From: a virus
Taxonomy: Duplodnaviria > Heunggongvirae > Uroviricota > Caudoviricetes
Virus record (IMG/VR): IMGVR_UViG_2693429518_000021
Length of the DNA: 42,445 bases
Strand: one strand, 5' to 3'
This document shows positions 1,874 to 13,840 of this stretch, piece by piece. Within the stretch, counting starts at the first letter, position 1, and the number at the start of each line of letters is the position of its first letter. The notes beneath the pieces were generated by a model. That model saw nothing but the letters and a program-made list of their open reading frames with translations. It was not told the DNA's origin and ran no database searches. The position numbers and the translations under genes are program-made.

Positions 1874-2070
1874 TACTGGCTGCGACACTTTTGAATAAAA
1901 GCGTCGACATTTCGGCGCTCATAACGAACTACTTTTGCACTGAAACGAATTGGTGCCAGGATAGCCCGATGACGATGCTTAATATTCCACTCACATAGCG
2001 TTTTCTGTGTAATACCTAACTTTTGGCATACTTCATCTGGGGTGAGTAAATCGTCGGGTTTCTCGCTCAT
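1870..2070 (-). CDS. Small DNA-binding protein, AlpA/Xis-like (helix-turn-helix)
   Basis: 66 aa; motif LLTPDEVCQKLGITQKTLCEW resembles AlpA-family prophage regulators/excisionases; start overlaps the helicase stop (ATGA), suggesting translational coupling. Confidence 0.55.
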   Translation of the reverse strand: MSEKPDDLLTPDEVCQKLGITQKTLCEWNIKHRHRAILAPIRFSAKVVRYERRNVDAFIQKCRSQY

Positions 2071-3461
2071 GCTATACCTCTCTTTTTCATGGCATCGAGC
2101 AGGATGTCCTGCACTGTTCGTTTTGAGTTGCGCCGCTCCATCACCATTTCGTCCATAGTGTCGGCCGCAATAATGTGGTGAATAAATACCGGACGATTGT
2201 GTCCGGCCTGTATCTGCCTGGTGGGGCCGATACGTTCAATAATTTGCTGATACTGCTCCAGGTCCCACCAGTGTGAGAAAAATACCAGTATGTTTCCGCC
2301 GTCCTGCATGTTCAGACCGTGGCCCGCGCTGGCTGGGTGTGCAAAGAGAACAGGAATCTTTCCGGAATTCCAGTCGCGCAGTGTCTGTGGATCTTGGTCG
2401 AGGTGACGACCGCGAGGGAATGCTTTAAGCAAGCGTTCAAGATCGTGTTTCCAGTGATAAGCAACCAGCACAGGTGCGCCAGCTGCTTCGGTCAGTATGC
2501 TGTCCAGCGCCTGCAGTTTGGTGTCATGCAGTTCTGACCAACTTCCGGTGTCGTCTGTGTATACTGCGCCACTGGCGATTTGCAGACACTTCAGTGTCTT
2601 TGCCGCGGCGTTTGGTGCTTCGATGCCTTCGCCATTCAGCTCGAGGAACATTTCCTTTTCCATTTCACGATACTGCTGACGGGCCTTCGGCGGCATATCC
2701 ACGCGGATTACGTTATGGATGGGGTCTTTGATATCGAACCAGTCGGCCGCATCCAGCGATAGGGTCACATCGGCTAACGCTCGCTGTATTTCACCCTGTG
2801 AGTGAGCAAACGGCTCCAGTTTGGTCCAGCTCTGCCCCGGAAACTGTATCGAGTTGAACCAGCGTGAGGTAAACGCGCCGTAAGTGCGTCCGAGACGTTG
2901 CCCCTGGTCCACAAACCACGCTTGTCCCCACAAATCTACCAGGCCGTTCGGTGCTGGCGTACCGGTGAGATTTATCCAGCGCCGGACATACTTATGCGCC
3001 ACTTTGCCCAGCGCCGCCGCGCGCTTACCACCACCTCGCAGCCGGAAGGATTTTAGCTGGGTGCTTTCATCTGGAATGACAGTACCGAACGGCCATCGTT
3101 CTCCCAATTCCTCAACCAGCCAGACAAGGTTATCGTAGTTGATGGTGAACACGCTTGCGTTGCTGTTCGCCAGCGCTGCAGAGCGCGCTTTGGCGTTACC
3201 AACAATCGGCTGCACCTCAATATTACGCAGATGCCCCCATTTAACAGCTTCATCAGGCCAGGTGCTTGCTGCAACGCGTAGCGGCGCGAGGACCAGCGCG
3301 GGGCGTGTTTCTGCTCCAGCCATGAAAAGATCTTCCAGCGTGGTGAGTGTCGCTACGGTTTTACCCATTCCCATACCTGCCCAGATGTTGCAGCGCATGA
3401 TGTCGATTTCGTGGTTGATAATGAGATCTTGGTAGGGGCGAGGGATAAAGTTTTGAGGCAT
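2067..3461 (-). CDS. Superfamily-2 helicase (SNF2/DEAD-like), phage replication module
   Basis: 464 aa; Walker A GMGKT, DEST (DExx-like) box, PYQ N-terminal motif, helicase C-terminal-like region. Confidence 0.8.
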   Translation of the reverse strand: MPQNFIPRPYQDLIINHEIDIMRCNIWAGMGMGKTVATLTTLEDLFMAGAETRPALVLAPLRVAASTWPDEAVKWGHLRNIEVQPIVGNAKARSAALANSNASVFTINYDNLVWLVEELGERWPFGTVIPDESTQLKSFRLRGGGKRAAALGKVAHKYVRRWINLTGTPAPNGLVDLWGQAWFVDQGQRLGRTYGAFTSRWFNSIQFPGQSWTKLEPFAHSQGEIQRALADVTLSLDAADWFDIKDPIHNVIRVDMPPKARQQYREMEKEMFLELNGEGIEAPNAAAKTLKCLQIASGAVYTDDTGSWSELHDTKLQALDSILTEAAGAPVLVAYHWKHDLERLLKAFPRGRHLDQDPQTLRDWNSGKIPVLFAHPASAGHGLNMQDGGNILVFFSHWWDLEQYQQIIERIGPTRQIQAGHNRPVFIHHIIAADTMDEMVMERRNSKRTVQDILLDAMKKRGIA

Positions 3462-3571
3462 TATAATCTCGCAAATTTTTGCTAGTTAGAGGTCGCACCA
3501 GTTGGCCTGGCAATTTTTACTATTCACAGCGAAGGTAACCCACAGGGTTAAATGTAAGGATAAACAATAAA

Positions 3572-4501
3572 ATGAGTGAATTTGGTGGTCAGCAACCCGC
3601 ACCCCAACAAGTACTGGACTTAGGTGTTAGTACTGAGGGGGTTTTTAACGAAATAGAAATGGGGGTTCTTCAGAACGGGATCTCCTACCTTACGCAAAAT
3701 GGGCTGGCTAGGATTTGCGGGGTGCATCGCAGTAATATCGCGGATATTTCTCGAGAGTGGGAAGAGAGCTTCCGCCACGGAGTTTTCGCTCGAGGGCGTA
3801 TGGAGTTTATCAGCTCATATTTACAGCGTGAGCAATATAATGAGCCGACTCTTTATATCCCAATCAACAAAGATGGGTCAGTCCATTATGCGTACCCAGA
3901 AGTAGTCTGTATGGCTATTCTGGAGTTCTACGCATTTGTATCTCAAAGTGCTGCAACTCCTACTGCGCTACAGTTTTTCCGCGAGCTATCCCGTGCGGGT
4001 ATGCGTGGTTACATCTATACAGCGCTTGGCTACATACCTGATGACCCTTGGCGTCATTACCACTCTCGTGTGTCAATCATGCATGGGGCAAACTCGGTTC
4101 CTGCTGGACACTTCATTGTATTCAATGAAATTGCTGGTTTAATGGTAGACCTCATCCATGCTGGATTAGCAGTAAACCAGTACACTGTACCGGATATCAG
4201 TGTGGGCCAGCACTGGGCTCGCTACTGGTCTTCTTCCAACTACGATGCGACGATTGGCCCAAGACAACGCTGCCAGCACTATTACCCTGAAGAATTCAAC
4301 CAATCCGCAAGTAATCCCCAAATGGTCTATGCATACCCTGATAATGCTTTAGCTGTATTCAGGCACTGGCTTCGTGCGGTTTATTTACCAACCAAATTCC
4401 CTAAATACCTTCTGAGTAAAGCAGGGCTATTGGCTGGCGGACAAACGGCGGCGTTGCAAATTATTGATAATTTTAATAATCGTGCATTACCTAACCCATA
4501 A
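3572..4501 (+). CDS. Hypothetical protein, possible Bro-N/KilA-N-like N-terminal DNA-binding domain; function unknown
   Basis: 309-aa ORF, the only plus-strand gene inside the minus-strand replication operon; tail-to-tail with the methyltransferase (stops 2 bp apart). N-terminal stretch FNEIEMGVLQNGISYLTQNGLARICGV resembles Bro-N/AntA/KilA-N-type folds (by eye, unverified). Confidence 0.6.
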   Translation: MSEFGGQQPAPQQVLDLGVSTEGVFNEIEMGVLQNGISYLTQNGLARICGVHRSNIADISREWEESFRHGVFARGRMEFISSYLQREQYNEPTLYIPINKDGSVHYAYPEVVCMAILEFYAFVSQSAATPTALQFFRELSRAGMRGYIYTALGYIPDDPWRHYHSRVSIMHGANSVPAGHFIVFNEIAGLMVDLIHAGLAVNQYTVPDISVGQHWARYWSSSNYDATIGPRQRCQHYYPEEFNQSASNPQMVYAYPDNALAVFRHWLRAVYLPTKFPKYLLSKAGLLAGGQTAALQIIDNFNNRALPNP

Positions 4502-4503
4502 TA

Positions 4504-5517
4504 TCAACAGATGAGGTCGTATCCTGTGCATTCCATAAACGAGCGGATGAATGTTGCGGCAGCTGGTGCGACTATCGCGTTGCCGTAGGCGCGCAGTCGT
4601 CCCACTCTGGAGGTAATCCCATGAGCCAACGGGAATGTGCCGGATTCAACTGGCCGCCAGCGACCATCCCGGCAGAGGAGCCAGTCAGCATCATCCCAGC
4701 AGCTGTTAATCGTATTGGGCCGCCGAGGGTCGTTCCCCGTTTGGTATGATTGGCCGCTGCGCCCTCGCCACGAACTTTGTTGTTGTCGACCGTCGTCACT
4801 GTCGGCCATCCCGCTAATCTGGATAGCCCCGCTAAGGTTTCTAGACCGCGTTTTGTCTCCGGCTGTGGGTTTGTGTTGCAGGTTGGGGTGTACCACCCCG
4901 CCAGGTGAGCAAAATCCCGCAGGGAGCTGTGTAGCGTGTTGCCGGACGGTCGACGATCTCCAGACATCTTCCTCAATGCTATTGAGGCGCTTTCGCCACC
5001 GCTGTGGTCGCTCGCCGCTGGCATCGGCCACCCAATACGCTCTATCTCGGATATGCGGGGCACCGACGCCCGCAGCCGGAAACGGGACAAGCCCAAAGGC
5101 GTAGTCCACTGCTTCCACGTCAGTTTGTACAAGATCGAACCAGGCATTGACTCCCGCAACCTGTTCGCCAAATACCAGCTCAGGGCGTCGCTCGCTGATG
5201 AGGTGGAATAGCGCTGGCCATAGGTGCCGCTCGTCATCAAATCCAGCGCCTTTACCAGCCGAGCTGAAAGGCTGGCACGGGCAACTTCCTGTCCAGACCG
5301 GTTTGTTATCCGGCCATCCGGCCAGACGCAGAGCATAAGACCAGACGCCGATCCCGGCGAAGAAATGGCACTGTGTGAATCCGCGCAAGTCGTCTGGTGC
5401 GACATCTTCGATACTCCTTTCATCAACTTCACCCGGGGCGATATGACCCGCAGCAATAAGGTTACGCAGCCATTGTGCTGCGTTAGGGTCTATTTCGTTG
5501 TAATAGGCTCCCCGCAC
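4504..5517 (-). CDS. DNA (cytosine-5)-methyltransferase
   Basis: 337 aa with C5-MTase motifs in canonical order: motif I FFAGIG, motif [11 protein letters not shown] (catalytic Cys), motif VI FGEQV (ENV-like), motif VIII IRDRAYW, motif X AYGNAIV. Confidence 0.85.
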
Positions 5518-5810
5518 AATATCCCCTCCAGATTTTTGCTATCCAGCACCACTACGGTAAAGCCCAGCGCGCGCAGTCGTCCGTGTTCACGCAGTTGGCC
5601 GGCGCGTGGTGTCTTGCCGGGTGCTTTACATTCAACGAAAACGATACGACCACCGGGTAGCAGAACAATGCGATCTGGTACCGAGCGGCGACCGGGAGAT
5701 ATAAACTTAAAGGCCACTCCGCCAGCTTTTTTCACTTCAGCGACGAGGTGCTTTTCGATAAGGCTTTCACGTTCATAGGCCATCTGAATCCCACTCTTCA
5801 AAAAGCACAT
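5490..5810 (-). CDS. VRR-NUC domain nuclease (PD-(D/E)xK)
   Basis: 106 aa; VPDRIVLL ... IVFVECKAPGK gives the D ... E-x-K signature; typical partner of phage PolA/helicase modules. Real start may be the internal MAYERE Met. Confidence 0.6.
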   Translation of the reverse strand: MCFLKSGIQMAYERESLIEKHLVAEVKKAGGVAFKFISPGRRSVPDRIVLLPGGRIVFVECKAPGKTPRAGQLREHGRLRALGFTVVVLDSKNLEGILCGEPITTK

Positions 5811-6072
5811 TCAATACCAGTTTCTCTGCCAACGCGTTTTCTGCACGTGCGCCGGCAGAGTACTCCCACTCTTTGAGCATATAAATCGTATCGGCACAGC
5901 GAAGCATTGCGAGGCAGATGTCCATGTACTGAGCCTGTGTCAAACCATCGGGTAAAGTTGCGGGGTTAAGCACAACATATCCCTTGTCCGTTAGCCTCTT
6001 TGCTGCGGAATGAAAGGCCGGGCGGTTAAATTGCTCGTAACCGCTCATCGGCCCGGCAACGTAAACGATCAT
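5773..6072 (-). CDS. DUF4406 / nucleoside 2-deoxyribosyltransferase-like protein
   Basis: 99 aa; N-terminal IVYVAGPMSGYEQFNRPAFH resembles the DUF4406 family signature (from memory). Confidence 0.45.
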   Translation of the reverse strand: MIVYVAGPMSGYEQFNRPAFHSAAKRLTDKGYVVLNPATLPDGLTQAQYMDICLAMLRCADTIYMLKEWEYSAGARAENALAEKLVLNVLFEEWDSDGL

Positions 6073-6284
6073 TCTTCGACCGCCTTACGCTTTTCACGCA
6101 TATTCTGCATCAGGCAAAAATCAGATCTGCGTTCACTCCATTCCTGATTCAGTTCGTGATGTGATTCGCGGTTGGCTTTTGCCCAGACCTTCGCTGCCCG
6201 GTCATATTCGCCGGATTGTTCAAGTCGCAAAGCCTCCCTTGCAGCCCTGTAATAAAGTGGATTGTCCCGGTATTTAAATGACAT
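6069..6284 (-). CDS. Hypothetical small protein
   Basis: 71-aa ORF wedged between PolA and the DUF4406 gene on the same strand, with overlapping/abutting stops and starts. Confidence 0.4.
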   Translation of the reverse strand: MSFKYRDNPLYYRAAREALRLEQSGEYDRAAKVWAKANRESHHELNQEWSERRSDFCLMQNMREKRKAVEE

Positions 6285-6289
6285 AGGAG

Positions 6290-8353
6290 TTAATCCTTAC
6301 GGTAGTGGTACGCCTCAAAACCGCCAGCGTTCAGTGGGATATCTGGCGCCCATTCGGGGTTAGTGGAGAGAAGCGCGGAAAGCGCTTTATCGTTGAAATC
6401 TTCTGTGTCAGGTGATTCGGTGATCACCTCGTCGTGTACCGTCAGCACAATGCTGTAACCGGCATCTTCGATAAGCGGCATGTTTCCGGCCAGAACGTCG
6501 CGGGCGGCCGCCTGGGTGACGTTCTCCACCAGCTTTCCGCCGTAGGTTTTGAGTCGTTGCCATTTACGCGAATAAGAGTTAACACCCATGTAGGTGATAT
6601 TCCCTTGTTCGATAACCGGAGACGGGTAGCATACAGCGCGTCCGGATGGTAGCTGTATGCGCAGCCACGCGCCATCGCGGCGGATTTTAAGATAACCGCA
6701 ATACAATGTTTTTTGCGGTGTGGCGATTGCTGTGCGGACGGTGCACTCCAGTTCGTACCAGAAATCACAGGTCGCGGGATGCGCCCGGCGCCAGAGACGT
6801 TTAAGTGAGTCGCAGGCGATAAATACCCGTTCAGAAAGCCCGTAGGTCGATTTACGTTTAACCGATTCGTCGTACCAGCTTTTCGCCTCGCGGATAACAT
6901 CGCGGGGAATGTTTGGCAGTGCGGCGTTCGCCAGCCCGTCGAGATCGAGACCGTAAACCAGAGCAAAAGTGATGAAAGCCGATACACCTCCTCCATAACC
7001 CAGACCGAGTTCCATGACTTTACCGATCTGACGCATGTGTTTATCAACATCATCTGGTGCAATATCGAAAGCTTTTGCATACGCCAGTTTATATAAGTCC
7101 GGACCCGTTCCGGCGTCGTACTCTCTGAATGCATTCAGTTTCCATTCTTCTCCCGCCAGCCATGCCAGCATACGGCCTTCAATGTTCGACAAGTCACTTA
7201 CCACCAGCTTTTTGCCTGTTGGCGCGATAATGCAGCCACGTAACGCTGAACTGGTTAGTTCCATGATATTGTCAAACAGCAGGTCTGCACATCCGGCTTT
7301 CAGTGCTTCGATGCCTTCGTCTATTTGTTCCTGTTTTAGTGAAGGGCGGGGAAGGTTCTGGGGCTGGAATAGCCGTCCGGCCCAACGACCGGTACGTGAC
7401 GCCCCGCAGAACTGTAGCGTACCGCGTAAGCGCCCGTCGTGGCTTACGCCTTTCATCAGTGCCTTGTATTTACTGGTGCTGGTAGTACTGGCCTGCAGGC
7501 GGATAGCCAGCAGTTCTTTCACGGCAGATGGTAAATCGGGGTCGGCAATACGACGTTCCAGAGTACTGCGTTGCATGTCTGGTAGCTCCACACCGTAGGA
7601 TTCAACAATGTGCTTAATCAACGCGTCTCGTTGTGTGGCTGCCTGCACTTCGCCATCAGTCATTTCCTGTGTACGCTTTGCCAGGCGCTTTTGTTCCTGG
7701 TCTACCGCGTCGATCGCAGCGCGTGCGAGTTCCACGTCCATGCAGACGCCCCGGTCATTGATCTGCTGATCACGATGCCAGAGCGCCAGTTCTGTCCCCT
7801 GATAATTCCACTTCGGCAGACGTTTATAGACTTCGCGCATTGCCTCGATATCCAGTCCGGCGTAAGCAACAAAGCGCCGCCATTCTTCCGGGTGGGTTTT
7901 GCTGGTGGCCCGGCGCAGTTTGCTGTTTTTCGGGCGTGGCTTACAGAACAGCTGGATCAGCGCTTTACCTTCTTTGTCCTTCGCTTTGTCTTGCGGGACG
8001 CCTAGTACTTCGCAGAGTTCCCCCAGAGCCCCCGGGAGACCGTGCGCCAGCGCCTGCACCATCGTGTCGCGCCAACGTTCGACTGGCGGTGCCAGTCGCG
8101 GCATTGCATAACGCAGGACGGTGCGGTCGAAGTGAGAGTTATGAAAATAAAGCAGGGTTTCAGGGGCTGCGATTGCTTCGTATAAGCCGTGTGGAATACC
8201 ACCACCGGCAGTGATATCCCATACGTTTACTGGCCCGTCGTTGATAGCCCATGCGAACAGCATCACTTCAACGCCTTCGGCATACGCATGGGTACCGTTC
8301 GTAATAGGGATTTCGCAATAGGTTTCCAGGTCGCCCCATAGTATATTGGACAT
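6290..8353 (-). CDS. DNA polymerase, family A (with 3'-5' exonuclease domain)
   Basis: 687 aa; exonuclease DxE (WGDLETY), polymerase motif A ([19 protein letters not shown]-like), motif B ([16 protein letters not shown]), motif C (VHDE). Confidence 0.85.
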
Positions 8354-8399: not shown

Positions 8400-9029
8400 A
8401 TGCATATGATCCAATACTTGATTGACCATACAGAGCATCTGGAGAAAATAGCTGGATATATTTTTTCATGTTTGATTGTTATGGGAGTCTGGATAAGAAA
8501 GATCATTTTTAATTATAAGTATAAAGAGCCTAAATATGTCAAGAAGTTAATTTTATATTTAGTTAAGTATGAACGTTATCTGGATAAGGAGGATAAGAGT
8601 GCCATAGAAAAAAGAATAAATGATAAAATTATTCGTGATGCGCTGAAATTGCAATCTTCTTATAACCGAAGTGATGTTATTTACATTTGCAATAGATTAG
8701 AAAAAAGACAGTATATAAATCAGGTGATTAAGCTTCAGAATTATATAGAGAAAGATAACGGAGTGTTTTTCATCAATGTTAATTTTTCAGGTTTTTTATT
8801 TATTATTAGTCGTCTGTTTTCCTTTCTGTGTTTTGTGCTGTTTATCCTTTTTTCTATTATCTGCATTATTTCCATAGGGCAAAATGAAGGCCTTTTAAAT
8901 TATCTTGTGTATATGGTTATGACAATAGTTTTAGAGACTGTTGGTTTTTGGATGTATGATACTTTCCCGTCTAAGAAGAAGATCTGTGAACTAAATAAAG
9001 AATTGAGGAAGATTAAGATTCCTGAGTGA
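8400..9029 (+). CDS. Hypothetical membrane protein (AT-rich accessory gene)
   Basis: 209-aa ORF, visibly AT-rich with Lys/Ile/Asn/Tyr-rich codon usage unlike neighbours; predicted TM segments (IAGYIFSCLIVMGVWI; FLFIISRLFSFLCFVLFILFSIICIISI; LVYMVMTIVLETVGFWMY); antisense to the polymerase/SSB operon. Confidence 0.6.
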   Translation: MHMIQYLIDHTEHLEKIAGYIFSCLIVMGVWIRKIIFNYKYKEPKYVKKLILYLVKYERYLDKEDKSAIEKRINDKIIRDALKLQSSYNRSDVIYICNRLEKRQYINQVIKLQNYIEKDNGVFFINVNFSGFLFIISRLFSFLCFVLFILFSIICIISIGQNEGLLNYLVYMVMTIVLETVGFWMYDTFPSKKKICELNKELRKIKIPE

Positions 9030-12222: not shown

Positions 12223-12747
12223 ATGTCTGAAGAAAAAGGACTTGTACGGCGTATAACTGAGGCGGCCACTAGTGCTGGTGGTGCTTTGAAAGGTGCTGTT
12301 GATTTAGCAAAAGAAGTTAATGCGTTGCAGGTGGATTACAATGTTAAAAGTAAAACTATCGATCTACTTGATAAACTAATTGATGCGCGTACTGGACAAT
12401 TCGCACTAACGGAGCTTTTGAACGAAGCTAAACAGCGCATTGTTGAACTCGAATCCCTTCTGGAAAAGAAACAGGATTGGGATAGTGAGAAAATGAACTA
12501 TGAAATGTACCACCCGATTACCAATACGGTGGTCTATGTACTGAAGCCTACTGACGATCCTGAGTTCAAGCCTCATTATCTTTGTACTACATGCTATGAG
12601 TCGGGTATGAAGTCTATACTTCAATACCATACTTCTAATGCCGCTTATAAAATTCTCAAGTGTCATAAATGCTCCGCTGAATATAAATTTCCCCGAAATA
12701 TAGAAGTCAGTGGCAAAACTCCTGCACCGTTACAACCTGCCAGATGA
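12223..12747 (+). CDS. Hypothetical protein with N-terminal coiled-coil and C-terminal 4-Cys zinc ribbon
   Basis: 174-aa ORF; CTTC ... CHKC motif near the C-terminus; divergent from the leftward operon; somewhat AT-rich. Confidence 0.55.
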   Translation: MSEEKGLVRRITEAATSAGGALKGAVDLAKEVNALQVDYNVKSKTIDLLDKLIDARTGQFALTELLNEAKQRIVELESLLEKKQDWDSEKMNYEMYHPITNTVVYVLKPTDDPEFKPHYLCTTCYESGMKSILQYHTSNAAYKILKCHKCSAEYKFPRNIEVSGKTPAPLQPAR

Positions 12748-13165: not shown

Positions 13166-13840
13166 TTAGTACATACGTAGCGCGGATTTGGCGATCCCCG
13201 CCACGTAATGGATTTTTTCAATGTTTTCGCGTGGTACTCTGACTGGTGGATGATCTTCATTTACAGACATTAGATGGAACAGGCCATCGCGTTCGAACAA
13301 GAAGGTTTTAACCATGACCTCACCTTCCCGGGTAACCACAAGTACTTCATCACCAGGAGTGTAGTCGTGGTTGGGTTCGACGATTACGAACTCCCCCTCT
13401 TTGATTCTAGGCATCATTGAATCACCAACACATTTCAGGGCGTATGCATCTTCATCCTTTGTCGGCCAGTATATGAAACCATCACTGCTACCTACTGAAT
13501 ATTGGGTGTCGCTCCAAAGTCCTCCAACGCCTAGCTGAGTGTTTCCCAAAACAGGTACTTTATTAAACCTAAGAGAAATATACGTTTTTATACCTGTCGC
13601 GTCCTCTTTCTCCATTTCTTGAAGGCTCCTTTCTGCCAAGTCTATTGGTGACACGTGGAAGTAGTCGGCGATCTGCTTTAACGTTGCGTATTTCGGATCT
13701 TTCACCTCTCCTGATACCAGCCTGTGTAGCGTTGGTTGGTTCAGCTGTAACCGACGTGCCAGCTCAGTTATCGAGCTTATCTTGGCTTTGTCCATCAGGT
13801 ACTTGATGTTTTGAGAAAGGATATCGGTAGTATCAATCAT
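13166..13840 (-). CDS. cI: CI-like prophage repressor (HTH + S24 LexA-like autopeptidase domain)
   Basis: 224 aa; N-terminal HTH (ITELARRLQLNQPTLHRLVSG); C-terminal S24 signature with catalytic Ser in GDSMMP and Lys in VMVKTF. Confidence 0.85.
   Translation of the reverse strand: MIDTTDILSQNIKYLMDKAKISSITELARRLQLNQPTLHRLVSGEVKDPKYATLKQIADYFHVSPIDLAERSLQEMEKEDATGIKTYISLRFNKVPVLGNTQLGVGGLWSDTQYSVGSSDGFIYWPTKDEDAYALKCVGDSMMPRIKEGEFVIVEPNHDYTPGDEVLVVTREGEVMVKTFLFERDGLFHLMSVNEDHPPVRVPRENIEKIHYVAGIAKSALRMY

Follow-up and report, generated by a model that had tools for sequence, protein, structure and literature searches.

In this work, we focus on a 42,445-nt stretch of viral DNA (Caudoviricetes; IMG/VR record IMGVR_UViG_2693429518_000021), hereafter the window, and particularly on one open reading frame (ORF) of its plus strand, found at 3572..4501. 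The window corresponds to a PolA-type myovirus prophage located beside yfhL. In this prophage, the ORF lies antisense to the replication operon, between the gene of an SNF2-family helicase and that of a C5 cytosine DNA methyltransferase (Table 1). The ORF and the methyltransferase gene converge, and exactly 2 bp (4502-4503) separate the stop codon of the former from that of the latter (4504-4506). An earlier reading of the letters alone, which we call the original prediction, had seen in this layout a candidate restriction or abortive-infection module. The coordinates that it gave for the ORF and the 2-bp spacing were verified, as were the four minus-strand neighbours (helicase, methyltransferase, VRR-NUC and PolA), from the ORFs, Pfam and the RefSeq annotation. 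The ORF is not, as had been stated, the only plus-strand gene of the replication operon, since those at 8400..9029 and 12223..12747 are also found there. The feature itself is real; the abortive-infection and BstA lead of the original prediction was right, and its restriction-modification reading was wrong.

Table 1. Coordinates of the features discussed, in the window unless another locus is named
Feature	Position	Strand	Remarks
SNF2-family helicase gene	2067..3461	-	Left wall of the slot; Pfam SNF2-rel_dom, E 2.3e-11; RefSeq annotation of a near-identical locus
Upstream non-coding region	3465..3571	+	Travels with bstA; left end of the cassette
Palindrome GCAAATTTTTGC	3471..3482	.	In block CTCGCAAAwwTTGCwAGTTG, which is likewise present upstream of sister alleles L012 and L105
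Palindrome AACCCACAGGGTT	3537..3549	+	First 8 nt are AACCCACA (3537-3544), candidate upstream aba-like copy; the part conserved in the 7 slot alleles starts here (about -35)
Shine-Dalgarno-like AAGGA	3556..3560	+	Inside conserved leader ATAAGGAAATCAAT; kept in 6 of 7 alleles
bstA ORF	3572..4501	+	309 aa; ATG start, TAA stop 4499-4501
AACCCGCACCCC	3594..3605	+	Codons 8-12 (Q-P-A-P); candidate downstream aba-like copy, 57 bp from 3537
C5 cytosine DNA methyltransferase, frame 0 ('alpha')	4504..5517	-	PF00145, E 8.6e-12; phrog_363, E 2.6e-90
Second ORF, +1 frame ('beta'-like)	4572..5456 (4572..5423 from first ATG)	-	294 codons; in-frame ATGs 5423, 5405
VRR-NUC nuclease gene	5490..5783	-	Right wall of the variable region; RefSeq annotation; phmmer matches in all related loci
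PolA gene	6290..8353	-	
Second plus-strand cargo ORF	8400..9029	+	209 aa; between PolA and DUF2815 gene; phrog_10579 of unknown function
174-aa ORF	12223..12747	+	Further along the leftward block
CI-like repressor gene	13166..13840	-	phrog_4, E 1e-34
Family repeat, examples	Loci L006-L094, e.g. L025 4870-4945, L084, L026; BTP1 L008 2906-2968		
Transposase-adjacent loci	L018, L019, L020, L022, L024, L025 (3932-4861), L031, L033, L037, L040, L046, L051, L059, L085, others		

The ORF very probably encodes a member of the BstA family of prophage abortive-infection proteins, and we will refer to it as bstA. That it is a real gene is supported by 329 homologues at E<=1e-10, hundreds of them full length, and by a confident predicted fold (mean pLDDT 89.4). 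The BstA model of PADLOC matches the protein at E 2.5e-110, residues 10-303 being aligned on profile positions 4-289 of 292, and PHROG 6287 (phrog_6287, 'BstA abortive infection system, replication inhibitor') matches it at E 6.2e-98. These profile searches, which had been suggested as a check along with the abortive-infection lead, thus return BstA over the full length. Compared with BstA of phage BTP1, the protein is 38% identical over residues 19-308 (294 columns, E 2e-67, BLASTP), and when it is aligned end to end with 23 diverse homologues (24 sequences in all), 37 columns are invariant, over both halves. In precomputed annotation, the Pfam family PF26567 (BstA_C) is assigned to P0001, a protein of identical sequence, and to every homologue listed. 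Our local Pfam-A scan gave no PF26567 match on the window protein, as that copy apparently does not contain this model; this negative by itself would have left bstA 'unknown'.

Translated, the ORF gives exactly the sequence of WP_001288450.1 from E. coli O103:H2 12009 (NC_013353.1, 3182172-3183101), which RefSeq labels 'hypothetical' in this strain as well as in E. coli 2011C-4251 and DEC5E. Owen et al. 2021, the paper that defined BstA, gives in its Table S1 a BstA homologue in E. coli O103:H2 12009, at AP010958 3183047-3182178 (PMC8585504). The interval 3182178-3183047 falls inside the gene of WP_001288450.1. We take AP010958 and NC_013353 to be the same sequence, in agreement with the match of the coordinates. 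Because the locus of the identical protein stands in this table, and there in a context identical to that of the window, the gene is by sequence already part of the published BstA dataset and already known as a BstA homologue. This allows one to name a protein that RefSeq calls 'hypothetical' and to drop it from the candidate new defence or restriction genes. What remains is mildly interesting: the non-canonical home of the gene, the question of self-immunity in the clade that shares this home, and some observations that concern the whole family.

As predicted by AlphaFold2 (119 sequences, pTM 0.76), the protein is made of an N-terminal beta/alpha unit that extends to about residue 152 and of a mainly helical C-terminal unit, with a dip in confidence at 160-200. 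A putative N-terminal domain of the DNA-binding type spans residues ~15-155 and the BstA_C domain residues ~156-305, and the model agrees with the boundary placed near residue 155 in BstA^BTP1 (PMC8585504). No solved structure related by sequence was found when the PDB was searched with the family profile. The KilA-N or Bro-N type of N-terminus that had been proposed from the sequence fared unevenly. A Pfam scan of the window protein gave no KilA-N or Bro-N match at E<=0.1, and Foldseek, run against the predicted viral structures of BFVD, gave weak matches (E 3e-4 to 0.7) that are enriched in Bro-N, KilA, antirepressor and 'repressor domain' proteins. In published work, a KilA-N(-like) N-terminus was assigned to BstA by remote homology (PMC8585504). 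A KilA-N-like domain is plausible, mainly on the strength of this published result, which is only weakly reproduced here. No nuclease signature was found anywhere in the protein with Pfam, PHROG, PADLOC and further checks, in line with the remark of the original prediction that no clear nuclease motif could be seen.

The gene is prophage-encoded, in the company of integrase, repressor, replication, lysis and myovirus structural genes, as are 79% of the published BstA homologues (PMC8585504). From left to right, the prophage starts with an integrase, an excisionase-like helix-turn-helix (HTH) gene, the SNF2 helicase, bstA, the C5 methyltransferase, VRR-NUC, DUF4406 and PolA; these are followed by DUF2815/DUF2800, the CI-like repressor, a Cro-like gene, a VapE primase, Q, the lysis genes, the terminase and the myovirus tail. 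Since the homology to the bstA-less prophage of E. coli BH100 stops at 3464 and restarts at 4511, bstA is, by this comparison, an independent cassette of about 1.05 kb (3465..4510), which brings along its own 107-bp upstream region. The slot that it occupies is filled in various ways in the relatives. It contains a 106-aa plus-strand ORF and then the methyltransferase in BH100, Rha and Arc regulators in STEC435, a 265-aa plus-strand ORF without the methyltransferase in 24AR0357, and a 305-aa ORF with weak similarity to TIR effectors in phage vB_EcoM-689R2. The six nearest other bstA alleles (60-66% identical; P0002, P0003, P0012, P0006, P0010 and P0013) all occupy this same slot between helicase and VRR-NUC in related prophages. 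BstA is not tied to the immunity region: an entire sub-clade has long resided in a cargo slot within the replication operon.

This distribution is what decides on the link between bstA and the methyltransferase, and with it on the idea of a Type II pair in which the 309-aa product would act as the restriction endonuclease. The layout invites such an idea: as in the Type II pairs whose genes converge, the stops abut next to a C5 methyltransferase, here 2 bp apart. The methyltransferase moreover has its catalytic motifs (PF00145, phrog_363; PCQPFS, GEQV), and M.EcoHK31I, an enzyme with the same two-frame gene architecture, recognises a defined site (YGGCCR), like other Type II methyltransferases (PMC2836561, PMC3404938). 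The window, however, differs from such pairs in two respects, namely the lack of an endonuclease and the lack of co-inheritance. No nuclease family matches the protein, which is BstA over its full length. The methyltransferase is absent from the slots of all six sister alleles, where each bstA runs tail-to-tail against the VRR-NUC gene and its 3' end abuts or overlaps the VRR-NUC 3' end (e.g. 6001-6933 against 6916-7197 in L012). Because the sister alleles pack in this way against VRR-NUC when there is no methyltransferase, the tail-to-tail arrangement belongs, as far as these slots tell, to the insertion slot and does not reflect any pairing of bstA with the methyltransferase. Conversely, about 21 complete E. 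coli genomes contain the methyltransferase (96% identical) but no bstA, as in BH100-type prophages, whereas both genes are present in about 15. Of 80 more distant bstA loci, not one has within 5 kb a homologue of the methyltransferase, helicase, VRR-NUC or PolA. Homologous methyltransferases are also solitary early genes in epsilon15-like, lambdoid and P2-like prophages and in the lytic Kagunavirus phiEc4, where the genes for PolA, nuclease, methyltransferase and SNF2 helicase follow one another as they do in the window. Since each of the two genes assorts without the other, they are, on this distribution, separately inherited neighbours brought together by an accident of insertion and no functional pair, and the methyltransferase is a separate, facultative orphan phage enzyme. 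The restriction-modification pairing, also the restriction module of the original prediction, is effectively refuted by the BstA identity and this independent assortment, and we give it next to no credence.

Two other alternatives keep the protein within the biology of its own prophage. In one of them, it would be a KilA-N/Bro-N-type antirepressor or regulator of the lysis-lysogeny decision rather than a defence protein; the model weakly resembles the structures of phage antirepressor, 'repressor domain', KilA and Bro-N proteins, which goes in this direction, and so does the presence of Rha and Arc regulators in the same slot of STEC435. However, the protein is homologous to BstA over its whole length, including a BstA_C domain that is missing from antirepressors, as it is from the KilA-N, Bro-N and APSES proteins at large (phage antirepressors, baculovirus Bro, yeast Mbp1), whose function is also a different one, regulation as against defence for BstA. 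Homology to an antirepressor had been named beforehand as an outcome that would speak against a defence gene, and no Ant, Rha or KilA-N family match was found in Pfam or PHROG at the thresholds used. According to Owen et al., the characterised BstA members act on foreign phages, without effect on lysogenic development (PMC8585504). We consider a regulator of this kind very improbable. In the other alternative, the prophage would, in this phage lineage, have recruited the protein as an accessory factor for its own replication, such as a DNA-binding protein associated with the origin or the replisome. Such a role would account for the stable place of the gene in the replication module, with seven alleles that have diverged to 60-66% identity and are all in the same slot, and it would fit with the localisation of BstA to phage DNA replication sites, as reported in the same paper (PMC8585504). 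The gene is nevertheless antisense to the operon and has its own upstream region, and because many close prophage relatives lack bstA, their slot being filled by unrelated cargo, namely the 106-aa ORF, the 265-aa ORF, Rha/Arc or the TIR-like protein, bstA must be dispensable for replication. An accessory role is improbable as well, if slightly less so than a regulatory one.

The reading that we favour, that of a BstA acting in abortive infection, can be laid out following its characterised relatives. By analogy with the BstA proteins of BTP1, of Klebsiella and of E. coli NCTC10963, the protein would be made in the lysogen, and a preferential expression of bstA in lysogeny, as first proposed from its antisense orientation, is plausible. 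It would then bind the replicating DNA of a superinfecting phage and block its replication, so that the infected cell would still die and no progeny would be released. A cognate DNA element named aba, situated at the 5' end of the locus, would exempt the prophage's own lytic replication; aba has been defined experimentally in BTP1 only (PMC8585504). The window may add a particularity to this scheme. In the leftward operon, the helicase gene is downstream of bstA, and early transcription after induction would have to cross bstA in antisense, unless the helicase has its own promoter. We infer that such a read-through could stop further BstA from being made and thereby protect the prophage at a second level. 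A parallel outside the family would be lambda RexAB and other abortive-infection morons, which are likewise prophage genes presumed to be expressed in lysogeny, abort other phages and sit in a mosaic hot spot; the proteins are unrelated, and the hot spot of the window is inside the replication module and not in the immunity region.

The aba element can be looked for across the family. In BTP1, it is a 63-bp DNA that extends from -29 to +34 and has CCCGCC at each end (PMC8585504), the two copies being 56 bp apart. We compared 79 non-redundant loci over the 150 nt that precede the conserved Met-Gly codons (M30 in the window protein, nt 3659). A repeat score of at least 8 is reached in 43 of them, and in 36 of these 43 the copies are 56 or 57 bp apart. 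The mean best score is 7.6 at offsets 56-57 and 3.6 at the other offsets, and the 56-57 pair beats every other pair of offsets in 46 of the 79 loci. The first copy is upstream of the short-form start, the second one is embedded in the codons of the N-terminal tail, and the repeat, of 8-22 nt, has a core that resembles GGCCACCCC. Copies from the same locus match each other better than copies paired across loci (mean 8.05 against 5.50, permutation p<=1e-4). This suggests an aba architecture common to the family, in which two co-varying copies, 56-57 bp apart, surround the start codon. Owen et al., in their main text, bring up this repeat for BTP1 only (PMC8585504), and an architecture found throughout the family would give a direct handle on how BstA recognises 'self'.

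Several points weigh against a canonical BstA system in the window. The gene is not downstream of the prophage repressor, from which about 8.7 kb separate it, unlike the context stressed in Owen et al. 2021, which is frequent without being universal and presumably entails co-transcription with the repressor: in the records of phages BTP1, PseuP_222 and D14H, the homologue sits after CI, while here it is antisense between the helicase and methyltransferase/VRR-NUC genes. BTP1 BstA belongs to the same family over its full length, has the same two-domain layout and is equally prophage-encoded. A promoter and terminator scan of 3300-4800 found no consensus sigma-70 promoter upstream of bstA on the plus strand. 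The window counterpart of the aba repeat, AACCCACA (3537-3544) and AACCCGCA (3594-3601), is at the usual position of the family, the copies being 57 bp apart as compared with 56 bp for the CCCGCC copies of BTP1, but it has a score of 5, no better than other offsets or shuffles, so that the BTP1-type repeat is just weakly recognisable. Finally, the BstA^Ec that was tested experimentally is another allele, of 897 nt, from NCTC10963 (PMC8585504).

The region upstream of bstA presumably holds its promoter and 5' leader. The palindrome GCAAATTTTTGC is a possible promoter or operator element of the gene. The same scan gave two terminator-like matches, which is chance frequency, and Rfam, run on the whole window, matched no family. 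A perfect TATAAT at 3462-3467, without a -35 box, adjoins the start codon of the helicase. Around the bstA start, several repeat pairs of 6-18 nt can be found, none of which is significant alone, and the seven slot alleles have no consistent direct or inverted repeat in common, only conserved islands. Conservation among them sets in sharply at about -35, with CYCWCAGGGT followed by ATAAGGAAATCAAT, and returns at +19..+34 with CAG..CACCCC. The CACCCC motif is found at +29..+34 in 4 of the 7 alleles, two more having CACCCT or CATCCC. In BTP1, a CACCCC is present at +26..+31, in the downstream half of aba, and that of the window is likewise about 30 nt into the coding sequence. This pattern of conservation matches the position of aba, yet it could equally reflect translation signals together with coding constraint. 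The AACCC/GGGTT pentamer is present 5 times in 131 bp (3537-3667), against 1.6 per kb across the window; it was noticed post hoc, and two of the five copies are in conserved Gly-Val codons, so that the excess is partly coding-driven.

By analogy, the clade of the helicase/VRR-NUC slot would have an aba too. The BTP1-type repeat with its 56-57-bp spacing may have been replaced there by another logic of self-immunity, either the antisense shut-off by the early operon or a diverged aba that would consist of the AACCC palindrome at 3537-3549 and of AACCCGCACCCC at 3594-3605. We regard such a replacement as rather unlikely.

Elsewhere in the family, the gene directly upstream of the BstA homologue is a DDE transposase of the IS1595/ISXO2 type in 16 of 68 loci, mostly in Alphaproteobacteria. 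Because the transposase stop overlaps the long-form bstA start (CTGAATG), this suggests that BstA travels as a passenger gene of insertion sequences. HTH/S24 repressor-like upstream neighbours are found in just 3-4 of the 68 loci.

The methyltransferase gene has a particularity of its own, a second long reading frame on the same strand. Frame 0 encodes the motifs FAGIG, PCQPFS, GEQV and RDR and a C-terminal YGNAIV. The +1 frame encodes a product with GWPTP-type modules and a C-terminus that, read by eye, resembles motif IX. This assignment of motifs, catalytic ones in frame 0 and motif IX in the +1 frame as in M.EcoHK31I, was made by eye from the translations and is tentative. An AAGGAG at 5419-5414 is 8 nt upstream of the second in-frame ATG (5405). 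The +1 product matches phrog_1008, phrog_31772, 220 phage records (27-49% identity) and more than 6000 database proteins, and the +1 frame is open over 257-348 codons in seven homologues of diverse phage origin, while the +2 frame contains 13-23 stops. Epsilon15, BcepC6B, phiEc4 and a Rhodobacter phage all show the same two-frame layout. At both ends of the gene, it is the third positions of frame 0 that take the substitutions, and in its middle those of the +1 frame; both frames look constrained in two stretches. One of these coincides with a 139-bp stretch, 4574-4712, whose DNA is 86-88% identical to that of Burkholderia and Pseudomonas phages, a level well beyond that of the remaining gene, and in which both frames encode conserved peptides. 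The N-terminal part of the +1 product has no selection signal, is predicted to be disordered and looks dispensable; the AlphaFold2 model of this product is partly confident (pLDDT 59.7). A gene-caller artefact was rejected, since the frame is open and conserved from Rhodobacter to Escherichia phages. A programmed frameshift was rejected too, as the chimeric database proteins differ in their junctions and both frames are constrained in the same nucleotides. RefSeq annotates frame 0 only at this locus, and some phage records, such as that of phiEc4, the +1 frame only.

This arrangement recalls M.EcoHK31I, a heterodimeric C5 methyltransferase whose alpha gene contains, in an alternative frame, the coding sequence of the beta chain, alpha bearing motifs I-VIII as well as X, and beta motif IX, and whose first 42 beta residues are not needed (PMC2836561, PMC3404938). 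The window gene shares with it a second ORF, which is long and uses a different frame of that strand, the catalytic motifs and the GNA(I/V) C-terminus in frame 0, the motif-IX-like end of the +1 frame, and an N-terminal beta part that is dispensable there and looks dispensable here. It differs in that the +1 ORF spans about 85% of the gene, with repeated GWPTP modules where frame 0 is unconserved, and in that there is no cognate endonuclease. The likeness is one of architecture. With this in mind, the gene looks like an M.EcoHK31I-type alpha/beta C5 methyltransferase, a type in which methylation requires both polypeptides. Because the +1 frame carries the GWPTP modules where frame 0 is unconserved, the target-recognition part may be in 'beta' rather than in 'alpha'.

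The relatives of the prophage also carry defence-like cargo in their replication module, in the slot of bstA and in neighbouring ones (L001 1458-2375 and 3105-3866; L107 4788-5549; L109 4803-5109; L004 3883-4911). This cargo includes a TIR-like PDC-S35 candidate (E 1e-108), the 305-aa protein that occupies the bstA slot and weakly resembles TIR effectors, a SIR2_2 protein and also a DrmA-like ATPase, and the module therefore looks like a hot spot for defence cargo. In the window, the plus-strand ORF between PolA and the DUF2815 gene gave no PADLOC match. Its GC content is 0.38, as compared with about 0.53 in its surroundings, and the C-terminal half of its product is hydrophobic. In the relatives, this PolA/DUF2815 slot is occupied by other plus-strand genes, such as DUF4145 in L013 and UCP028583 in L014.

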